A stretch of 32,000 bases of DNA, taken from the NCBI RefSeq assembly GCF_001644705.1, contig NZ_CP015137.1, positions 1,320,001-1,352,000 on the forward strand. The letters are read 5' to 3'. Below the pieces are notes generated by a model. The model ran no database searches, was not told the DNA's origin, and worked only from the letters and a program-made list of their open reading frames with translations. Positions 5,746 through 15,153 of the stretch are shown piece after piece (the first letter of the stretch is position 1; each line of letters opens with the position of its first letter). The stretch is from Dickeya solani IPO 2222. GTDB taxonomy: Bacteria; Pseudomonadota; Gammaproteobacteria; Enterobacterales; Enterobacteriaceae. Made by a program: the position numbers and the translations under genes.

Positions 5746-7331
5746 TTCCCGGCTGGCTGTGGCCGGGGCTGCTGGCGGCCGCGCTGTTGACCGGCACCGC
5801 GGCGCTGGCGTTCGCCGCGTTATGGCTGGACGCGCCCGGCGCGCCCTGGCAATCGCTGTGGGATGACAGCTACCTGTGGCATGTCATCCGCTTCAGCTTC
5901 TGGCAGGCGCTGCTGTCGGCGCTGCTTTCCACCCTACCCGCGCTGTTTCTGGCGCGGGCGTTGTACCGCCGCCGCTTTCCCGGCCATCGGTTGCTGTTGC
6001 GCCTGTGCGCGATGACGCTGGTGCTGCCGGTGCTGGTGGCGGTATTCGGCATCCTCAGCGTCTACGGCCGCGAGGGCTGGCTGGCCCGCCTGCTGATGCA
6101 GTTCGGTATCGAATACCGTTTTTCGCCTTACGGTTTACAGGGCATTTTGCTGGCCCACGTCTTTTTTAATCTGCCGCTGGCGACCCGGCTGTTTGTGCAG
6201 GCGCTGGAAGGCATCGCCACCGAGCAGCGCCAGTTGGCGGCGCAGCTTGGCCTGCGCGGCTGGCACTTTTTCCGACTGGTGGAGTGGCCGTGGCTGCGCC
6301 GTCAGCTGTTGCCCGCCGGTGCGCTGATTTTCATGCTGTGTTTCGCCAGCTTCGCCACCGTGCTGGCGCTGGGCGGCGGTCCGCGTGCCACCACTATCGA
6401 ACTGGCGATCTATCAGGCGCTGAGCTTCGATTATGACCCGGCGCGCGCCGCGTTGCTGGCGCTGTTGCAAATGGTGTGCTGCCTGGGGCTGGTGTTGCTC
6501 AGCCAGCGGCTGGGCCAGTTGCTGGCGGTGGGCGCCGGCAATCGCCTGAGTTGGCGCGACCCGCAGGACAGCCGGTTCAGCCGCGTTGCCGATACGCTGC
6601 TGATTGCGGCGGCGCTGCTATTGCTGTTGCCGCCGCTGCTGGCGGTGGTGGTGGACGGCCTGAATCGCTCGCTGCCGGACGTGTTGCGCCAGCCCGCGCT
6701 ATGGCAAACGCTCTGGACCTCGCTGCGCATCGCGCTGGCCGCCGGCGCGCTCAGCGTGGTGCTGACGTTGATGCTACTGTGGAGCAGCCGGGAACTAAAA
6801 CTGCGCCAGCGGCGGCTGCCCGCCCAATTATTGGATGTAAGCGGAATGCTGATTCTGGCGATGCCGGGGATTGTGCTGGCGTCCGGTTTTTTCCTGCTGT
6901 TTAACCGCACCGTCGGGTTACCGGCTTCCCCTTACGGACTGGTGGTATTGACCAACGCGCTGCTGGCCATCCCCTATGCGATGAAAGTACTGGAAAACCC
7001 GATGGTCGACACGGCGGCGCGTTATAGTCTGTTGTGCCAGTCGCTGGATATCCGCGGCTGGCATCGTCTCAGGGTGGTGGAGCTGAAGGCGTTACGCGCG
7101 CCCATCGCGCAGGCGCTGGCCTTTGCCAGCGTGCTGTCGGTGGGCGATTTTGGCATCATCGCCCTGTTCGGCAACGAACAGTTCCGCACCCTGCCGTTTT
7201 ATCTTTATCAGCAGATTGGCGCTTATCGCAGCGCCGACGGCGCGGTGACGGCGCTGCTACTGCTGCTGCTGTGTTTTATGCTGTTTACCCTGATTGAGAA
7301 ACTGGCAGGCCTTAATGATCGCGCTCGATAA
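5721..7331 (+). CDS. thiP: Thiamine ABC transporter permease
   Basis: [13 protein letters not shown]...[21 protein letters not shown]...[23 protein letters not shown]...[14 protein letters not shown] matches E. coli ThiP. The start at 5721 overlaps the thiB 3' end by 25 nt. Confidence 0.9.
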
Positions 7332-8007
7332 GTTAACCTACCTCTACCAACACCTGCCGATGCACTTTGATTTACAGGTGCAGCCCGGCGAACGCATTGC
7401 CATTCTGGGCCCGAGCGGCGCGGGCAAAAGCACCTTGCTCAGCCTGATCGCCGGTTTCCTGCCGGCCGACAGCGGTCGGTTACGGCTTAACGGACAAGAT
7501 CACTTCGCCACGCCGCCGGCAAAACGCCCGGTGTCGATCCTGTTCCAGGAAAATAACCTGTTTCCTCACCTGACGCTGGCGCAGAATATCGCGCTCGGCC
7601 TGCACCCCGGCCTGAAACTGACCGCAGACCAACGAGGGACGCTGCGTGATATCGCCAGCCGCATGGGGCTGTCGGACTTACTGGAACGCCTGCCGTCGCA
7701 GGTGTCCGGCGGCCAACGGCAACGGGTGGCGCTGGCGCGCTGCCTGATTCGCCAGCAGCCAATCCTGCTGCTGGACGAGCCGTTCTCCGCGCTCGACCCG
7801 GCGCTGCGTCAGGAAATGCTGGCGCTGGTGGACGAGATCTGCCGGGATCGCCAGTTGACGCTATTGATGGTATCGCACCAGTTGGAAGACGCCGCGCGCA
7901 TTGCACCGCGCAGCGTACTGGTGGTGGACGGCCGCATCTATCACGATGGCCCAACCGGGGAACTGGCTAACCACCCGGATGCGGCGCGGATCTTGGGTTT
8001 GAGGTGA
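7315..8007 (+). CDS. thiQ: Thiamine ABC transporter ATP-binding protein
   Basis: [20 protein letters not shown]...[11 protein letters not shown] (Walker A)...[13 protein letters not shown] (signature)...[11 protein letters not shown] (Walker B), colinear with E. coli ThiQ. The start at 7315 overlaps the thiP stop. Confidence 0.85.
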
Positions 8008-10400: not shown

Positions 10401-11168
10401 TCAGCCATTCAGAATTTGCCACAGCAGGCGACGGTACACCGGCATCAACGGATGCTGCCACAACTGCCACAGACTAACGGCGGCGATAACCGACACCAGC
10501 GGCGCCAGCCAGTACAAACGCGAAGCCGTCAACCCACCGGTTGATTCGGCTTTGGCTCCACGACGGGCACGCCACAGGCGCCACACCAGCCAGCCAGCCC
10601 CCCACAGCAAGATAGCCGTGATTAACAGCAGCCACTTGAAACTGCCGCTGTCGGCCTGCTTGGGGATATCGATCGCCACGCCGGCCAGAATGCCGGGCAG
10701 CAGATAAACCGGCGGCCAGGTGAGACAGCCGATGATATTCGGCAACGCAAAGCGCCGGGGCGACAACTCCAGCATCCCCGCCACCATCGGGATCAGCGGA
10801 CGAGTCGGGCCAAAAAACCGCCCAATCAGAATGGTCGCCATATTATGCTGATGCAGCATTTTTTCGGTGCGATACAGGTAAGCTCGGTGCTTTTGCAGGA
10901 ACGACCAGTTATGCAGCCGGTCCTTGAAACGCCAGCCGATAAAATAGGAAATCCAGTCTCCCAGCAGGCAACCGATGATGCCCATGCCCCAGGCCGGATA
11001 CAGCCCCATATTGCCGCTGCCGATCAACGCCCCCAACGACGCCATCATCAGCGTGCCGGGCAACAGCAGCCCCACCAACGCCAGTGACTCCAGAAACGCC
11101 ACCAGCAGTACCGCCGTCAGCGACCAGGCTAACGATTGTGTGATCAGATGCTCCAGCCAGGCTTCCAT
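10401..11168 (-). CDS. yabI: DedA-family inner membrane protein YabI
   Basis: MEAWLEHLITQS...VAFLESLALVGLLLPGT..MA.LGALIGSG...GDWISYFIGWRFK...GRFFGPTRPLIPMVAGML...NIIGCLTWPP.YLLPGILAG.AIDIP is colinear with E. coli YabI. Confidence 0.85.
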   Translation of the reverse strand: MEAWLEHLITQSLAWSLTAVLLVAFLESLALVGLLLPGTLMMASLGALIGSGNMGLYPAWGMGIIGCLLGDWISYFIGWRFKDRLHNWSFLQKHRAYLYRTEKMLHQHNMATILIGRFFGPTRPLIPMVAGMLELSPRRFALPNIIGCLTWPPVYLLPGILAGVAIDIPKQADSGSFKWLLLITAILLWGAGWLVWRLWRARRGAKAESTGGLTASRLYWLAPLVSVIAAVSLWQLWQHPLMPVYRRLLWQILNG

Positions 11169-11429
11169 AAATCTCTACATTTCTGCTTTTTTATGAACAA
11201 AGATAACGGGATGATAGCAGGAAACGGTGGGAATATGGCAGATAGTAGTAAAAGCGCGGCTGACGCGAGGTTAACCATTACTGGACAGCTACGTCCTTGA
11301 AGCAGCAACATTTTGTTGTTATAAAAGCATCACTTTAAGAAAATAAATGGATTGACTCATGTAAGAAGCGAGGATTGCTTTTCCTGTTGGCACATTGCGG
11401 AACAACAGAGTTAAGTTAGGGTAAACAAT

Positions 11430-11996
11430 ATGAAAAAAATAGCACATGCTTCGCTGTTAATAGCGCTATTGGTATCATTACAAGCCTATGCATCTATTAA
11501 TTTAATCAAGAATGAGGATAAAACCCTATCAAGTGAAGTAATAAAATATGGAAATAAAAAAGGGCTAGTTGATATAAAACCCCAGAGCGATCAGAGCTTT
11601 GACATTATTGACGACGGGAAATACATAGGAACAATCATTCCAGCCAAAGGATTTCATAAAAACTATTACCCACTGTGCTTTATTGGTTGGTCAACTGATA
11701 AAAAAACAATATCAAAAATCATCCTATCAATAGGGCAAGGATATTTTGAACTTTCCCTCTGTTCAAAACTTGATGCAATAGGAAAAATAGAGGAAAAGGG
11801 AAGAACCTTTATTGGCTTTGTATACACTGTAGGGTTGAGAGACAGATATGCTCAAAACTACTTTCTCATTGAGCTTAATAGAGAAAAAAGAACTATAGAA
11901 GATAAAAGTCAACTCATTGAAAAATTTCAAAATGATTCAGAAAAAAAGAGCATAGCTGATCTTAGAAGAGATATAAAGAAAATTGATGAGAAATAG
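11430..11996 (+). CDS. Secreted (SPase I signal peptide) protein of unknown function, paralog 1 of a tandem pair
   Basis: MKKIAHASLLIALLVSLQAYA|SI is signal-peptide-like. The C-terminal ~125 aa are about 60-65% identical, by eye, to the next ORF (shared PLCFIGWS, SIGQG.FE, IGFVYTVGLRDR, NYFLIEL). AT-rich codon usage. I recognise no family. Confidence 0.6.
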   Translation: MKKIAHASLLIALLVSLQAYASINLIKNEDKTLSSEVIKYGNKKGLVDIKPQSDQSFDIIDDGKYIGTIIPAKGFHKNYYPLCFIGWSTDKKTISKIILSIGQGYFELSLCSKLDAIGKIEEKGRTFIGFVYTVGLRDRYAQNYFLIELNREKRTIEDKSQLIEKFQNDSEKKSIADLRRDIKKIDEK

Positions 11997-11998
11997 CA

Positions 11999-12556
11999 AT
12001 GAAGAGAATATTGGCAATAATAACATTATCAATGTCACTTCAAGCGCATGCATCAATTACGTTGACGCCGATTGATAGCAGCAATCTATTATTGCAGCTG
12101 TCGATAAAAACACAACCCTTGGGAATAGACCAGATAAAAATAGATAATGGACAATCTTTTGACATTACTGAAAACGGTAAATATCTAGGCACACTAATCC
12201 CTGCCGAGGGTTATTATAGAAAATACAATCCGCTATGCTTTATTGGTTGGTCTATAGACAAAAAAGAAATCAGTAATATTGTTCCATCTATTGGTCAGGG
12301 TGATTTCGAAAGCTCAATCTGCCTAAGTCTCGATGCTGTTGGGAAAATAGAAGTAAAAGAAAAAACATATATAGGATTTGTTTATACAGTTGGATTAAGA
12401 GACAGACGAGCTAAAAACTATTTTTTGATTGAGTTAGATAAAGATAAAATAACGATCGCAGATAAAAGTGCACTTGTCGATAGTCTACAAAATAATAGTG
12501 ATGAAAAAAGCATTGTAATGCTCAGGAAATATTTCTCTCAAAACATCTCACGTTAA
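11999..12556 (+). CDS. Secreted protein of unknown function, paralog 2 of the tandem pair
   Basis: MKRILAIITLSMSLQAHA|SI is signal-peptide-like. It starts 2 nt after the paralog-1 stop (operon). Conserved blocks are as for paralog 1, including two conserved Cys. Confidence 0.6.
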   Translation: MKRILAIITLSMSLQAHASITLTPIDSSNLLLQLSIKTQPLGIDQIKIDNGQSFDITENGKYLGTLIPAEGYYRKYNPLCFIGWSIDKKEISNIVPSIGQGDFESSICLSLDAVGKIEVKEKTYIGFVYTVGLRDRRAKNYFLIELDKDKITIADKSALVDSLQNNSDEKSIVMLRKYFSQNISR

Positions 12557-12602
12557 TCCAGACGTACCATTAATTATAAATCCAGCAGGAAAATAGAGGG
12601 AA

Positions 12603-12989
12603 TTATAACAGCAATTCAAAATAAGTAGCATTATCTTCACGATTAACGGAAAGCACAATAAATTTATTTTTATCTGGCGATTCCCATACCTCTCGGTAAC
12701 CATCATCCATATTGAGCGTAAACTTCAATAATTTCAAATAGTTCCTTAACGTCTCAATATCGGTGGTATTTTCAAAATATATACCAGTGACCTGCTTCCC
12801 AGGCCCTTCAGCATCGCCGTGTTTAATTTGATATTTTTGAGATATTTTTGGTGCATTTATTATTATTGGATCAGTTAAACTACTATTATCCGAAGAAGAA
12901 AATTGATGCTCTAATCCGCTATTGGAAATAATAAAATAAGCGATTGGCACACCTAAGACGAAAAAAATAATTATCATTTTCTTTCTCAT
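12603..12989 (-). CDS. Small membrane-anchored or secreted protein; candidate immunity protein for the upstream putative effector
   Basis: The N-terminus MRKKMIIIFFVLGVPIAYFIISNS is a hydrophobic anchor or signal, followed by a Ser-rich linker and a ~90-aa domain. Its ATG (12989-12987) directly abuts the TAA (12992-12990) of the upstream gene, indicating translational coupling. The position matches the usual effector-immunity gene order. Confidence 0.5.
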   Translation of the reverse strand: MRKKMIIIFFVLGVPIAYFIISNSGLEHQFSSSDNSSLTDPIIINAPKISQKYQIKHGDAEGPGKQVTGIYFENTTDIETLRNYLKLLKFTLNMDDGYREVWESPDKNKFIVLSVNREDNATYFELLL

Positions 12990-13691
12990 TTAATCACCAT
13001 TAAAGAAGTTATTATGTATTTCACTACCATCCTCTACTGCAATACCAACTTTATCTGATGTGGAACGAGAGTACGGTTTTATAGTTAACATAAACGATGG
13101 TAAAAAACCTAAGTATGGTCTAACATTTGGATTCTTATCTGGATCAGGAAATAACATCGGCCTGAATGTTTTATTTTTAAATGAACCAATGGGACCATAA
13201 AAATCCCATCGTCTCAAAGCATCCTCTTTACTCACTGGCTTTAATTCAGGAAAGTAATTTTTATTATATATAGCCCTATAAAAACCTAGTAAATCAGATA
13301 CTAAATCTTCACCACTAAATCCACTATCGGTGATAGCACTGAAAGGGAATGAATCCTGCAAATTTTCAAATCGACAAGCTACTTTCATCATCATGGCAAG
13401 AGCAATACTATATCTTTCATATAAAGTAGTCCCTTTTTTTATTCTCCAAACAACATATTTAGATATTCCAATATTTTTTTTGAATTTCCACATCCCTTGA
13501 AAATACTTAACATCATAGTATGGTTGACTTCCATTTTCACCTGCTTCGAACTGATTAAGCAAAGCTTTTATATCAAAGCCTTGAGCATGCCCCAAGTCAA
13601 CCCACCCTAAAACTTCTGTATATACTAAACCATAGCTTTTAAAAGTAGCTTCAGAGCCATTTAATATATCTGAGCGTTTACTCATAGTCAT
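12990..13691 (-). CDS. Hypothetical 233-aa protein; candidate Hcp-dependent T6SS effector of unknown activity
   Basis: It lies 34 nt downstream of an Hcp gene on the same strand and is followed by a coupled membrane-anchored ORF. It has no signal peptide or TM segment. I recognise no family motif: no HExxH, no exact GxSxG, a single Cys. Confidence 0.5.
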   Translation of the reverse strand: MTMSKRSDILNGSEATFKSYGLVYTEVLGWVDLGHAQGFDIKALLNQFEAGENGSQPYYDVKYFQGMWKFKKNIGISKYVVWRIKKGTTLYERYSIALAMMMKVACRFENLQDSFPFSAITDSGFSGEDLVSDLLGFYRAIYNKNYFPELKPVSKEDALRRWDFYGPIGSFKNKTFRPMLFPDPDKNPNVRPYLGFLPSFMLTIKPYSRSTSDKVGIAVEDGSEIHNNFFNGD

Positions 13692-13725
13692 CTCATTCCA
13701 TTGAAGTTGATATAATCAAATGATA

Positions 13726-14205
13726 CTACATTGTAGAATCTCTCCAAAACATATAAGAATTTGTGCGTGCAGCAACATTTTCCCACTCAATAGTATTGAA
13801 CTTAATAGAAATATTCTCACATGGCTGTATATCGTTATGCGTTAATGAATTTGGATAAAAACAGCTAATATTTGATATTATTGCGCCTAAAAGGTTTATC
13901 TTGAAATATAATTCAATCCCTCCAGAAATACTGGTTCTGAAAATGGAAAAATTACATGTCAGCGTTTCATTTTCATTTAATGCTTGGGATATTAATGGCG
14001 TGGCTTTATCTATTGGCTTTCGTACCTGAACAGGATGAAATGATATGTTTTCTTCACGCATAACATTAGTATTTAATTCATATATAAATATCTCATTCTC
14101 ATGCCCAGCCTGATACAGGTTCCCTATTGATGGAGCGGTAGAACATCCAGCTGATATAAGCCCTTGTTTTTCTCCATGAAGCGAAAGGTAAATAATGTTT
14201 GCCAT
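13726..14205 (-). CDS. hcp: Hcp (TssD) family type VI secretion tube/chaperone protein, orphan copy
   Basis: The 159-aa product MANIIYLSLHGEKQGLISAGCS..SIGN.YQ.GHE..I....L...V........H.P....KPIDKATPL...A...E.L...F.F.RTS..GG.ELY.KI.L..A.I......P......D.QP.E.I...N.IEW has the length and N-terminal pattern of Hcp1-family proteins (compare MANLIYLTLNGKQQGLISAGCST.. type sequences). No other T6SS core genes are in the window. Confidence 0.75.
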   Translation of the reverse strand: MANIIYLSLHGEKQGLISAGCSTAPSIGNLYQAGHENEIFIYELNTNVMREENISFHPVQVRKPIDKATPLISQALNENETLTCNFSIFRTSISGGIELYFKINLLGAIISNISCFYPNSLTHNDIQPCENISIKFNTIEWENVAARTNSYMFWRDSTM

Positions 14206-14371
14206 ATCAAGTCCCTGATTACATTAGTTTAGGTGTATAAAGCTACTAATCATTACAATTTATGTCAACGATAAATAAAAACCGGAATGTTCAGGCCTAA
14301 CACTGTCGTTATGCCCCTGAAAGGAGTTTTGCCTTTCTGAAAGAGAATCTCTAACTCGTTCGCTAAATATG

Positions 14372-14405
14372 AAAAAAGCCGATTACTCAGAGGCAGTCGG
14401 CTTTT
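14372..14405 (-). terminator. Rho-independent terminator downstream of the ABC-transporter operon (bidirectional appearance)
   Basis: The sequence is AAAAAAGCCGA-ttactcagaggcag-TCGGCTTTT: a stem flanked by an A-run and a T-run, about 55 nt after the last ATPase gene stop (14458). Confidence 0.7.
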
Positions 14406-14457
14406 CACATAATACTTTCACCTTAGCGTTTGATGAGCAAATTATCGCCATTTACGC

Positions 14458-15145
14458 TCATCCCCCCAAATACATCCGCTTCACCTCCGGATTGGCCAGA
14501 ATCTCCCGTGCCGGGCCGTGCAATACCATGCGGCCGTTTTCCAACACATAGGCGCGATCGGCAATTTTCAGCGCAGCGGTGGCGTTCTGCTCCACCAGCA
14601 GGATGGTGATGCCTTCCTTCTGCAACTGCTTGATGGTTGAGAATAATTCGCCCACCACTTTCGGCGCCAGTCCCAGGCTTGGTTCGTCCAGCATCAGTAG
14701 CACCGGTTCGCTCATCAGCGCGCGGGCGATAGCCAGCATCTGCTGCTCACCGCCGCTCATGGTGCCGGCCATCTGGCTGCGCCGCTCTTTGAGACGCGGG
14801 AACAGCGCGTACATTTTGTCGCGCAAGTAGGCAAAGTTAACCGGGTTGTTGTAAGCGCCCATGCGCAGGTTTTCTTCAATCGTCAGATTGGTGAACACCT
14901 TGCGCCCTTCCGGCACCAGCGCCAGCCCTTTACGGACGATCTGGTGCGTTGGGCTGTGGGAAATGTCCTCGTTGAGAAAACCGACCGTCCCGGTGGATTT
15001 CACCAGATTGATGATACCGTTGAGGGTTGAGGTTTTCCCGGCGCCGTTACTGCCGATCAGGGTGACGATTTCGCTGTTGTTCACTTCCAGATCGATGCCT
15101 TTCAGCCCCTGAATCAGCCCGTAAAACACTTGCAGATCGCGGGCG

Positions 15146-15153
<8 letters not shown>
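14458..15153 (-). CDS. HAAT-family (branched-chain amino acid type) ABC transporter ATP-binding protein, LivF-like
   Basis: GSNGAGKTSTL (Walker A), MSGGEQQMLAIARAL (signature), LLMLDEPSLGLAP (Walker B), and a C-terminal NPEVKRMYLG typical of LivF. Confidence 0.85.

Follow-up and report, generated by a model that had tools for sequence, protein, structure and literature searches.

For proteins of the Lipocone superfamily, the predicted activity is removal or exchange of lipid head groups that are linked through phosphate (PMC12419801). The members that have been studied experimentally are the phosphatidylserine synthases and TelC (PMC12419801), an LXG toxin of the Streptococcus intermedius type VII secretion system (T7SS) that acts as a lipid II phosphatase and has TipC as its immunity protein. 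The activity of TelC, cleavage of lipid II, is confined to the space outside the cytoplasm; the immunity protein is membrane-tethered and extracytoplasmic. So far, removal of undecaprenyl-linked head groups is known from this Gram-positive T7SS toxin only. CapCone-1 is a family of the ClaspCone-CapCone-TelC clade of the same superfamily (Burroughs, Nicastro, Aravind, eLife 2025; PMC12419801), and it is named among the families recruited as polymorphic toxins or as type VI secretion system (T6SS) toxins (PMC12419801). Here we describe a CapCone-1 gene, with its two neighbors, in a 32,000-nucleotide stretch of Dickeya solani IPO 2222 (contig NZ_CP015137.1, positions 1,320,001 to 1,352,000 of the forward strand; the whole stretch is called the window below).

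On the minus strand of the window, hcp, which codes for an Hcp/TssD protein, is followed after 34 bp by a gene for a 233-aa protein, referred to here as the effector. The stop codon of the latter is abutted, without a gap, by the ATG of a gene for a 128-aa partner. This gene order is directly established, as are the family membership and motif conservation of the effector and the topology and fold of the partner. What is new is the assignment of the Dickeya locus to CapCone-1, the family itself having already been published from computational work. Taken as a single statement, we lean slightly towards the view that the locus encodes a T6SS-exported CapCone-1 toxin acting on a phosphate-linked lipid head group, with the partner conferring immunity.

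A CapCone-1 protein downstream of hcp

The effector is a real gene. One search returned 484 homologues at E<=1e-3, spread over the Enterobacterales, and in a representative library clustered at 50% identity the protein has 597 matching clusters. Identity is 92% in D. fangzhongdai, ~67% in Pectobacterium and 55-60% in other Enterobacterales; near relatives occur in Yersinia pestis, Y. pseudotuberculosis, Salmonella, Enterobacter, Serratia, Pantoea, Erwinia and Pectobacterium. Because the aligned orthologues all begin with MSKRS (27/27), translation probably starts at Met3 (13685), which would give a protein of 231 aa as in D. fangzhongdai. The product (26.7 kDa, pI 8.7) has a single Cys (C106), two His (H35 and H226) and neither HExxH nor GxSxG. 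It lacks hydrophobic segments (the top Kyte-Doolittle 19-residue window scores 0.78), and Pfam and NCBIfam scans together with hydropathy gave no sign of a signal peptide, transmembrane (TM) segment, PAAR, MIX or Rhs feature. On the composition and on these missing features a previous reading of the stretch, made from the sequence only, was accurate, and the frame that it placed downstream of hcp agrees exactly with the open-reading-frame listing; the strand, which is minus, had gone unstated. Searches with the effector covered Pfam, NCBIfam, PADLOC and PDB sequences. The first three gave no match to the window protein itself, and the PDB sequences gave none to the single sequence or to a profile.

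The orthologues proved more telling. Weak DUF4056 (PF13265) matches in 24 of the 28 orthologues (best E=1.3e-6) led to the Lipocone superfamily paper, whose source data give core sequences for each family (PMC12419801). The CapCone-1 list includes evident orthologues of the window effector: residues 5-141 are 59% identical to the listed member WP_125290769.1 (blastp, E=4e-55), and 20 more listed members match the same residues at blastp E<1e-20. When the alignment of effector orthologues was compared by hhalign with distant, short CapCone-1 members, the score was 96.7% (E=4e-10); with CapCone-DUF4056 it was 95.9% (E=6e-9). By these sequence comparisons the effector almost certainly belongs to CapCone-1, a family that joins the YfiM families at 83-88% in the published HHpred network (PMC12419801). 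Some orthologues carry the database name "DUF4056 domain-containing". However, PF13265 gave no match to the window effector at E<=10, and the two distant relatives with listed PF13265 scores (19.8-22 bits) fall under the 23.6-bit gathering threshold. Judged from sequence, the effector thus belongs to a sister family of DUF4056 (PF13265) and is not a formal member of the latter.

The motifs that define the clade are present and strongly conserved. For the clade and its CapCone group, helix 2 is described as carrying the catalytic His with Gly at -6 and xD at -4; helix 4 has S/GxxSxx before an Asp, with an aromatic residue and Ser at -4/-3, and a small residue and usually Asn at +3/+4 after it (PMC12419801). 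We scored these definitions over the 28 orthologues. Helix 2 of the effector reads G29-W-V-D32-L-G-H35, with G29, D32 and H35 invariant (28/28), and helix 4 reads S123-G-F125-S126-G-E-D129, with S123, F125, S126 and D129 equally invariant, as are S132 and the helix-capping G136. The acidic site of helix 3, F108-E109, is unchanged in all 28, and hhalign places E109 opposite the Glu of the CapCone-DUF4056 WHE motif. The sequence-only reading had found no recognizable catalytic signature and had held the chemistry not to be inferable; it mentioned SGFSGE as a near miss of a GxSxG motif and LGHAQGFD as one of the few places with a His. The verdict on the chemistry has to be given up, in that a CapCone-1 His/Glu/Asp site is present. 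Nor are the two segments incidental: they are the conserved helix-4 and helix-2 motifs respectively, and from the alignments each appears to supply one half of the predicted active site.

The AlphaFold2 model of the effector (pLDDT 87.8, pTM 0.86) arranges these motifs as follows. The N-terminus forms short helical turns only, reminiscent of the degenerate helix 1 of CapCone-1. Strands 22-25 and 29-32 form a beta-hairpin clasp (22-32) that leads into the His-bearing helix 2 (33-52); a second, inserted beta-hairpin spans residues 58-85, helix 3 with Glu109 spans 90-113, and helix 4 (127-142) begins just ahead of Asp129. Beyond the published Lipocone core lies a C-terminal extension that is well conserved to about residue 206, its tail after that point being variable. 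Its invariant residues are W162, D163, Y165, G166, K172, N173, P178, F181, P182, P184, L197, P198, F200, M201 and P206, and most distant relatives of the effector align to query positions 1-205. The extension is possibly a "cap", or a part that binds the substrate or Hcp. Among longer relatives, the 316-aa protein P0161 of the representative library is a distant one with a C-terminal LysM domain (PF01476, E=1.3e-5), and others of 320-440 aa are extended at the N- or C-terminus by stretches free of Pfam matches. LysM is a peptidoglycan-binding domain, and a relative that bears it fits a target in the cell envelope.

Table 1. Features of the three-gene locus and its surroundings, in window positions
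Feature	Position	Strand	Basis or remark
livF-like ABC gene, island edge	14458-15153
Hairpin followed by T-run, after livF-like gene	14372..14404	-	Sequence reading
Hcp/TssD gene hcp, 159 aa, first of three genes	13726..14205	-	TIGR03344 E=1.6e-49; PF05638 E=1.5e-18
Effector gene, 233 aa	12990..13691	-	ATG open reading frame; open-reading-frame listing
Lipocone (CapCone-1) core of effector, residues 5-141	13269..13679	-	blastp, hhalign, secondary structure of the model
His35 codon, predicted helix-2 catalytic His	13587..13589	-	Invariant 28/28
Glu109 codon, predicted helix-3 catalytic Glu	13365..13367	-	Invariant 28/28
Asp129 codon, predicted helix-4 catalytic Asp, motif running on to L-V-S132-D133	13305..13307	-	Invariant 28/28
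C-terminal extension of effector, residues 142-233	12993..13268	-	Invariant columns; outside published Lipocone core
Partner gene, 128 aa, last of three genes	12603..12989	-	Candidate cognate immunity protein
N-terminal hydrophobic anchor of partner, residues ~5-23 after MRKK	12921..12977	-	Kyte-Doolittle maximum 2.30 at residue 5
Predicted extracytoplasmic domain of partner, residues ~40-128	12606..12872	-	AlphaFold2 and Foldseek; PsbP/Mog1/DcrB-like
Tandem paralogues, 188 and 185 aa	11430-11996, 11999-12556	+	55% identical to each other; signal-peptide-like N-termini
DedA/VTT-family gene, island edge	10401-11168
Low-G+C island, ~3.2 kb	11200..14450	.	About 32-39% G+C vs ~60% in genome/flanks; composition profile

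The membrane-anchored partner

The gene context of the effector was examined in 80 loci from species-representative genomes. In nearly all of them a homologue of the partner (~140 aa) follows the effector, the stop codon of the one and the start codon of the other often overlapping; the superfamily study also tabulates 89 loci in which a PsbP/Mog1 gene lies downstream of CapCone-1 (PMC12419801). The partner of the window is 100% identical to a Dickeya solani protein. The anchor segment is present in 56 of 60 partner-family members. In 46 of the 60, though not in the Dickeya protein, the number of Cys is exactly two, and they stand in a conserved C..EAECW context. AlphaFold2 predicts the domain beyond the anchor with pLDDT >90 and the topology beta-beta-alpha-beta-beta-beta-beta. 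Its top Foldseek match is DcrB (6e8a; probability 0.93, E=0.022, TM 0.35), with MOG1, PsbP and TiME also listed, and no Pfam family, DUF1795 included, matches the partner at E<=1. The partner has diverged further than the effector, mean pairwise identity being 0.36 for the former vs 0.60 for the latter, and the two diverge together (Spearman rho 0.79). In hcp-linked Pectobacterium loci the effector is followed by two tandem, diverged partner copies, both anchored. In P. versatile / P. carotovorum these lie at 6694-7598 (locus L001) and 6694-7587 (L007). At orphan loci such as those of Yersinia, the partner is the sole accompanying gene and there is no other immunity candidate.

We regard the partner as most likely a periplasmic immunity protein because of its anchor, the Cys pair of the family, the lack of a TM segment in the effector, its faster divergence, its co-divergence with the effector, the tandem duplication and its position as the sole candidate; effector and partner would quite likely form a toxin-immunity pair. 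This argument for a PsbP/Mog1-like neighbor as antidote is new to the present analysis. In such an arrangement, the partner would be held in the inner membrane by its anchor, and its periplasmic PsbP/Mog1/DcrB-like domain would bind incoming toxin and protect the producer and its kin. Imm-BamE, the commonest immunity protein of Lipocone toxins, was considered as an identity for the partner and set aside: it is made of a two-helix hairpin and three beta-strands, a different topology, and shares with the partner membrane anchoring alone.

Delivery, mobility and genomic setting

Hcp directly adjoins the effector in 9 of the 80 loci (~11%), in Pectobacterium, Brenneria, Kalamiella and Pseudenterobacter, and in the Pectobacterium and Brenneria loci an orthologous Hcp (62-71% identity) lies directly upstream as it does in Dickeya. 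No other non-housekeeping family recurs among the neighbors. The superfamily study likewise counts eight HCP neighbors upstream and eight downstream of CapCone-1 genes, along with 94 CapCone-1 domains fused to RHS (PMC12419801), and in the Salmonella SPI-6 T6SS cluster a DUF4056-annotated open reading frame, in a bi-cistronic unit of variable region VR2, has been noted as a candidate effector. Delivery of the effector by the T6SS is, we think, likely. Loading as Hcp cargo is plausible, based on gene adjacency in ~11% of loci, and a size of 26.7 kDa is compatible with cargo of the Hcp ring, at the upper range. The Serratia effector Ssp4 was examined as a possible characterized relative and rejected, as it belongs to an unrelated family of pore-formers.

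Elsewhere the pair is found in a great variety of settings. The 148 upstream neighbors in the 80 loci comprise 155 Pfam families and are unrelated housekeeping genes, coding for example for AcrB, UvrB, BioD, SecF, catalase and alkaline phosphatase. The hcp-linked modules are themselves wedged between such genes (bioD/uvrB, acrB/alkaline phosphatase, secF), and in Yersinia the pair stands by itself, flanked on one side by an ndh-like gene (pyridine nucleotide-disulphide oxidoreductase, PF07992) and on the other by a glycine-zipper gene. Seven genomes carry three effector-partner copies each, at different chromosomal sites: Pectobacterium versatile (L001, L004, L011), P. carotovorum (L005, L007, L025), Serratia plymuthica (L017, L021, L068), Erwinia tracheiphila (L019, L061, L066), Rosenbergiella gaditana (L032, L053, L054), Ca. 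Pantoea formicae (L020, L058, L064) and Winslowiella arboricola (L030, L037, L067). Further copies are on plasmids, including conjugative IncF plasmids. The smallest setting is the circular, 2691-bp plasmid pJE05 of Erwinia sp. Ejp617 (NC_017444.1, L088), with an effector homologue at 1954-2658, the partner running across the record origin from 2655 to 410, and a 78-aa open reading frame; a 2774-bp Tatumella contig (L056) is 79% identical to it in nucleotide sequence over the effector gene. This suggests that very small replicons serve as vehicles of the pair, unless pJE05 and L056 are assembly fragments.

In the window, the three genes lie on a low-G+C island that also holds two paralogous secreted-type genes, and the orthologous island is found in the same position in D. 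fangzhongdai. The low-G+C island, the scattered insertion sites, the multiple copies and the plasmids are the signature of a conflict system. These observations are best explained by a module of three genes, for Hcp, effector and immunity protein, that sits on a horizontally acquired island. The tandem paralogues, which are convergent with the effector operon, have no match in Pfam, NCBIfam or PADLOC; they are 78-82% identical to counterparts in the D. fangzhongdai island and absent from the other 80 effector loci. One could envision that they are orphan immunity genes. The D. fangzhongdai island (CP025003.1, L085) has, between the immunity gene and the paralogues, an extra gene for a cytoplasmic-looking protein of 237 aa (11334-12047, plus strand); this gene shows no similarity to the effector and no Pfam match, and the window retains no remnant of it.

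As to expression, the hairpin and T-run after the livF-like gene set that gene apart from hcp, so that hcp needs a promoter of its own. A perfect TTGACA occurs at 14263-14268, lacking a good -10 box 16-18 nt away, and sigma-70 and terminator scans upstream of hcp gave nothing above chance. Rfam searches of the island and of pJE05 found nothing.

Likely chemistry, rival explanations and known systems

From the findings above we infer T6SS dependence, toxicity, the kind of substrate and the immunity role. The T6SS would export the effector, probably as cargo associated with Hcp, and deliver it to the periplasm of neighboring bacteria. There a membrane lipid would insert its tail into the helical "cone" of the effector, and the predicted catalytic residues His35, Glu109 and Asp129 would form one pocket at the cone aperture and cut or exchange the phosphate-linked head group. 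The likeliest targets would be undecaprenyl-(pyro)phosphate-linked envelope precursors, for example lipid II, with a resulting block of cell-wall synthesis; phospholipid head groups would be the chief alternative. To judge from family membership and motifs, the effector probably acts on a lipid head group of some kind. That lipid II specifically is the substrate is a guess by analogy, and a doubtful one, as the present data do not discriminate among lipid substrates.

Several observations weigh against the reading just given. Experiments on CapCone proteins were not found in the literature searched, and toxicity and activity are predictions. The relationship to the one characterized toxin of the clade is distant: hhalign against 22 prok-TelC cores gives a probability of 0.6%, and in the published HHpred network CapCone-1 leads to ClaspCone-3 at 66%, whereas prok-TelC leads only to ClaspCone-2, at 69% (PMC12419801), so that the path from CapCone-1 to prok-TelC runs solely through these two weak steps. 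The sequence-only reading had proposed a structure prediction followed by a fold search. The first yielded a confident AlphaFold2 model and the second nothing above noise: Foldseek of the effector model against the PDB did not recover TelC and gave only hits of TM<0.2, the best being YopH (E=0.31, TM 0.13), which we treat as noise. At +4 after the catalytic Asp, 27 of the 28 orthologues have Asp133 and one has Asn, the usual residue of the clade; in sequence terms this is a conservative departure and the sole deviation from the clade motifs. As regards delivery, 71 of the 80 loci are without Hcp, with no T6SS gene found within 6 kb, and the neighborhoods of the 80 loci showed neither VgrG nor PAAR nor an adaptor gene. 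In the superfamily study the PsbP/Mog1 gene bears the annotation "toxin effector transport mediating domain" and counts as diagnostic of T6SS secretion (PMC12419801), a different role from the one proposed here. Finally, a pattern search found no sigma-54 -24/-12 element in 14206-14457, upstream of hcp, where other D. solani hcp modules are reported to have sigma-54 promoters.

Some of these points bear on which substrate, or which chemistry, is involved. A Lipocone toxin with a substrate other than lipid II, such as a glycerophospholipid head group (by a phospholipase-D-like reaction or transphosphatidylation) or an intermediate of lipopolysaccharide (LPS), enterobacterial common antigen (ECA) or lipoprotein synthesis, would agree with the presence of phosphatidylserine synthases in the superfamily, with the remark of its authors that the toxins could "also target other lipids" (PMC12419801), and with the failure of hhalign and Foldseek to detect any specific similarity to TelC. 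Moreover, the TelC-specific Asp at +6 after the helix-4 Asp is replaced in the effector family by an invariant Leu, Leu135; together with the hhalign and Foldseek results, this led us to reject the effector as a member of the prok-TelC family. Since the sole characterized toxin of the clade has lipid II as its substrate, however, and one relative of the effector carries the peptidoglycan-binding LysM domain, we hold such another substrate to be rather unlikely. A zinc metallopeptidase of the LAS/M15 type that attacks peptidoglycan, on which the sequence-only reading had speculated from H-x4-D and E-x-H spacings, can be practically dismissed. The zinc ligands of that type are a conserved H-x(3-6)-D and a second conserved His (H-x-H). 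H35 and D40 of the H-x4-D are indeed both invariant, but H226 of the E-x-H lies in the variable tail and is kept by no more than 4 of the 28 orthologues. H35 is the single conserved His, and this makes a His/Asp/His zinc site impossible. Pfam and NCBIfam gave no match to peptidase families, Foldseek against the PDB gave no peptidase structure, and H35 is fully accounted for as the Lipocone helix-2 His. What endures of the sequence-only reading is the effector role and the periplasmic target, the latter having been argued from a membrane-anchored or periplasm-facing partner for which an anchor and a folded extracytoplasmic domain are now predicted; its uninferable chemistry and the LAS idea do not.

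Other points concern the partner and the route of delivery. The partner might be a secretion adaptor, in which case immunity would reside elsewhere or be unneeded. Foldseek does place it in the PsbP/Mog1/DcrB fold group, which includes the DUF1795 Eag chaperones. Yet the anchor and the Cys pair, in the proportions given above, are typical of extracytoplasmic proteins, DcrB as the best structural match is itself a lipoprotein of the periplasm, and an Eag-type chaperone would find no TM helix to shield in the effector. The absence of a DUF1795 or other Pfam match, the downstream position, the rapid divergence, the tandem duplication and the orphan loci devoid of any other immunity candidate point in the same direction. 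We therefore set aside an identity as Eag/DUF1795 adaptor, which would be cytoplasmic, devoid of an export signal and paired with an effector bearing N-terminal TM helices, and an adaptor role of any kind seems to us quite improbable. Similarly, the pair could be a toxin and its antidote that dispense with the T6SS, serving as an addiction or exclusion module of a plasmid or island or being released in some other way, with the hcp adjacency secondary. The 71 loci remote from T6SS genes would be explained, as would the pair being the sole recognizable cargo of the 2.7-kb plasmid pJE05 and its occurrence on conjugative IncF plasmids. With Hcp-dependent cargo effectors, however, it is usual for the effector-immunity pair to be orphan and distant from T6SS genes, and the Dickeya effector has no signal peptide and no receptor or translocation domain, nor was a lysis gene found. 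With Hcp as the only recurrent neighbor outside housekeeping families and 94 loci in which related CapCone-1 domains are fused to RHS, we give this explanation little chance, and a T6SS-delivered toxin neutralized by its anchored partner is the reading that we retain.

If that reading is correct, the compact three-gene module would allow Lipocone biochemistry to be tested in a genetically easy host, and attack on the lipid carrier would join the known activities of T6SS effectors. It would also settle whether PsbP/Mog1-like neighbors of toxins are antidotes or secretion helpers, which bears on the annotation of effector loci, and would add one more likely weapon to the interbacterial arsenal of D. 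solani, which is only now under study. It is tempting to speculate, though somewhat unlikely, that the locus provides the first experimentally tractable Gram-negative T6SS effector to remove an undecaprenyl-linked head group, combined with a new class of periplasmic immunity protein and with residues 142-206 fitting the toxin to Hcp or to its substrate.

Set beside known systems, the locus combines features that have been described apart. TelC is a remote prototype, and on sequence grounds the analogy between it and the effector appears to be only transitive. The two are placed in the same superfamily and clade and follow the same His/Glu/Asp logic (PMC12419801), and the immunity protein of TelC is membrane-tethered and extracytoplasmic as is predicted for the 128-aa partner. 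In contrast, the C-terminal helix of TelC and its Asp at +6, paired with an Arg of that helix, are absent from the effector; TelC also uses T7SS/LXG delivery and an immunity protein of another fold, whereas the effector is tied to Hcp. Like other CapCone-1 proteins, the effector is soluble, has the beta-hairpin clasp and the diagnostic motifs, and is encoded by a stand-alone gene with a PsbP/Mog1-like gene after it. It represents the "long" subtype, in which a beta-hairpin is inserted between helices 2 and 3, and it departs from the family in its conserved C-terminal extension of ~65 residues outside the published core, in having Asp where the clade usually has Asn at +4 after the catalytic Asp, and in that its PsbP-like partner, a transport-mediating domain according to the superfamily study (PMC12419801), is read here as an immunity protein. 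The beta-hairpin insert is common to CapCone-DUF4056, which hhalign aligns with the effector family at the motifs YT-x-GG-x-D-x-x-H, (W)HE and SAFS-x-ED-x-x-S-N/D-x-LG, but canonical members of that family are tied to genes of outer-membrane beta-barrels (151 loci) and not to Hcp or PsbP-like genes.

As with DcrB, the predicted place of the partner is at the periplasmic side of the inner membrane, to which it would be tethered, although the fold match is weak (E=0.022, TM 0.35) and comes without a sequence-family match to the DcrB/PsbP/Mog1 group. It differs from the Eag chaperones by its anchor, by the Cys pair of its family and by its place downstream of an effector that has no TM helix. In general organization the closest parallel is with Hcp-dependent cargo effectors of the Tse1/Tsi1 and Tae4/Tai4 type. 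These are likewise small and soluble, free of PAAR, VgrG, MIX and Rhs parts, and encoded in bicistronic pairs, often orphan and at times beside hcp, with an immunity protein that is exported to the periplasm. Their toxins, however, are amidases or muramidases that act on peptidoglycan, whereas the Dickeya effector has a Lipocone fold and is predicted to act on lipid-linked head groups.

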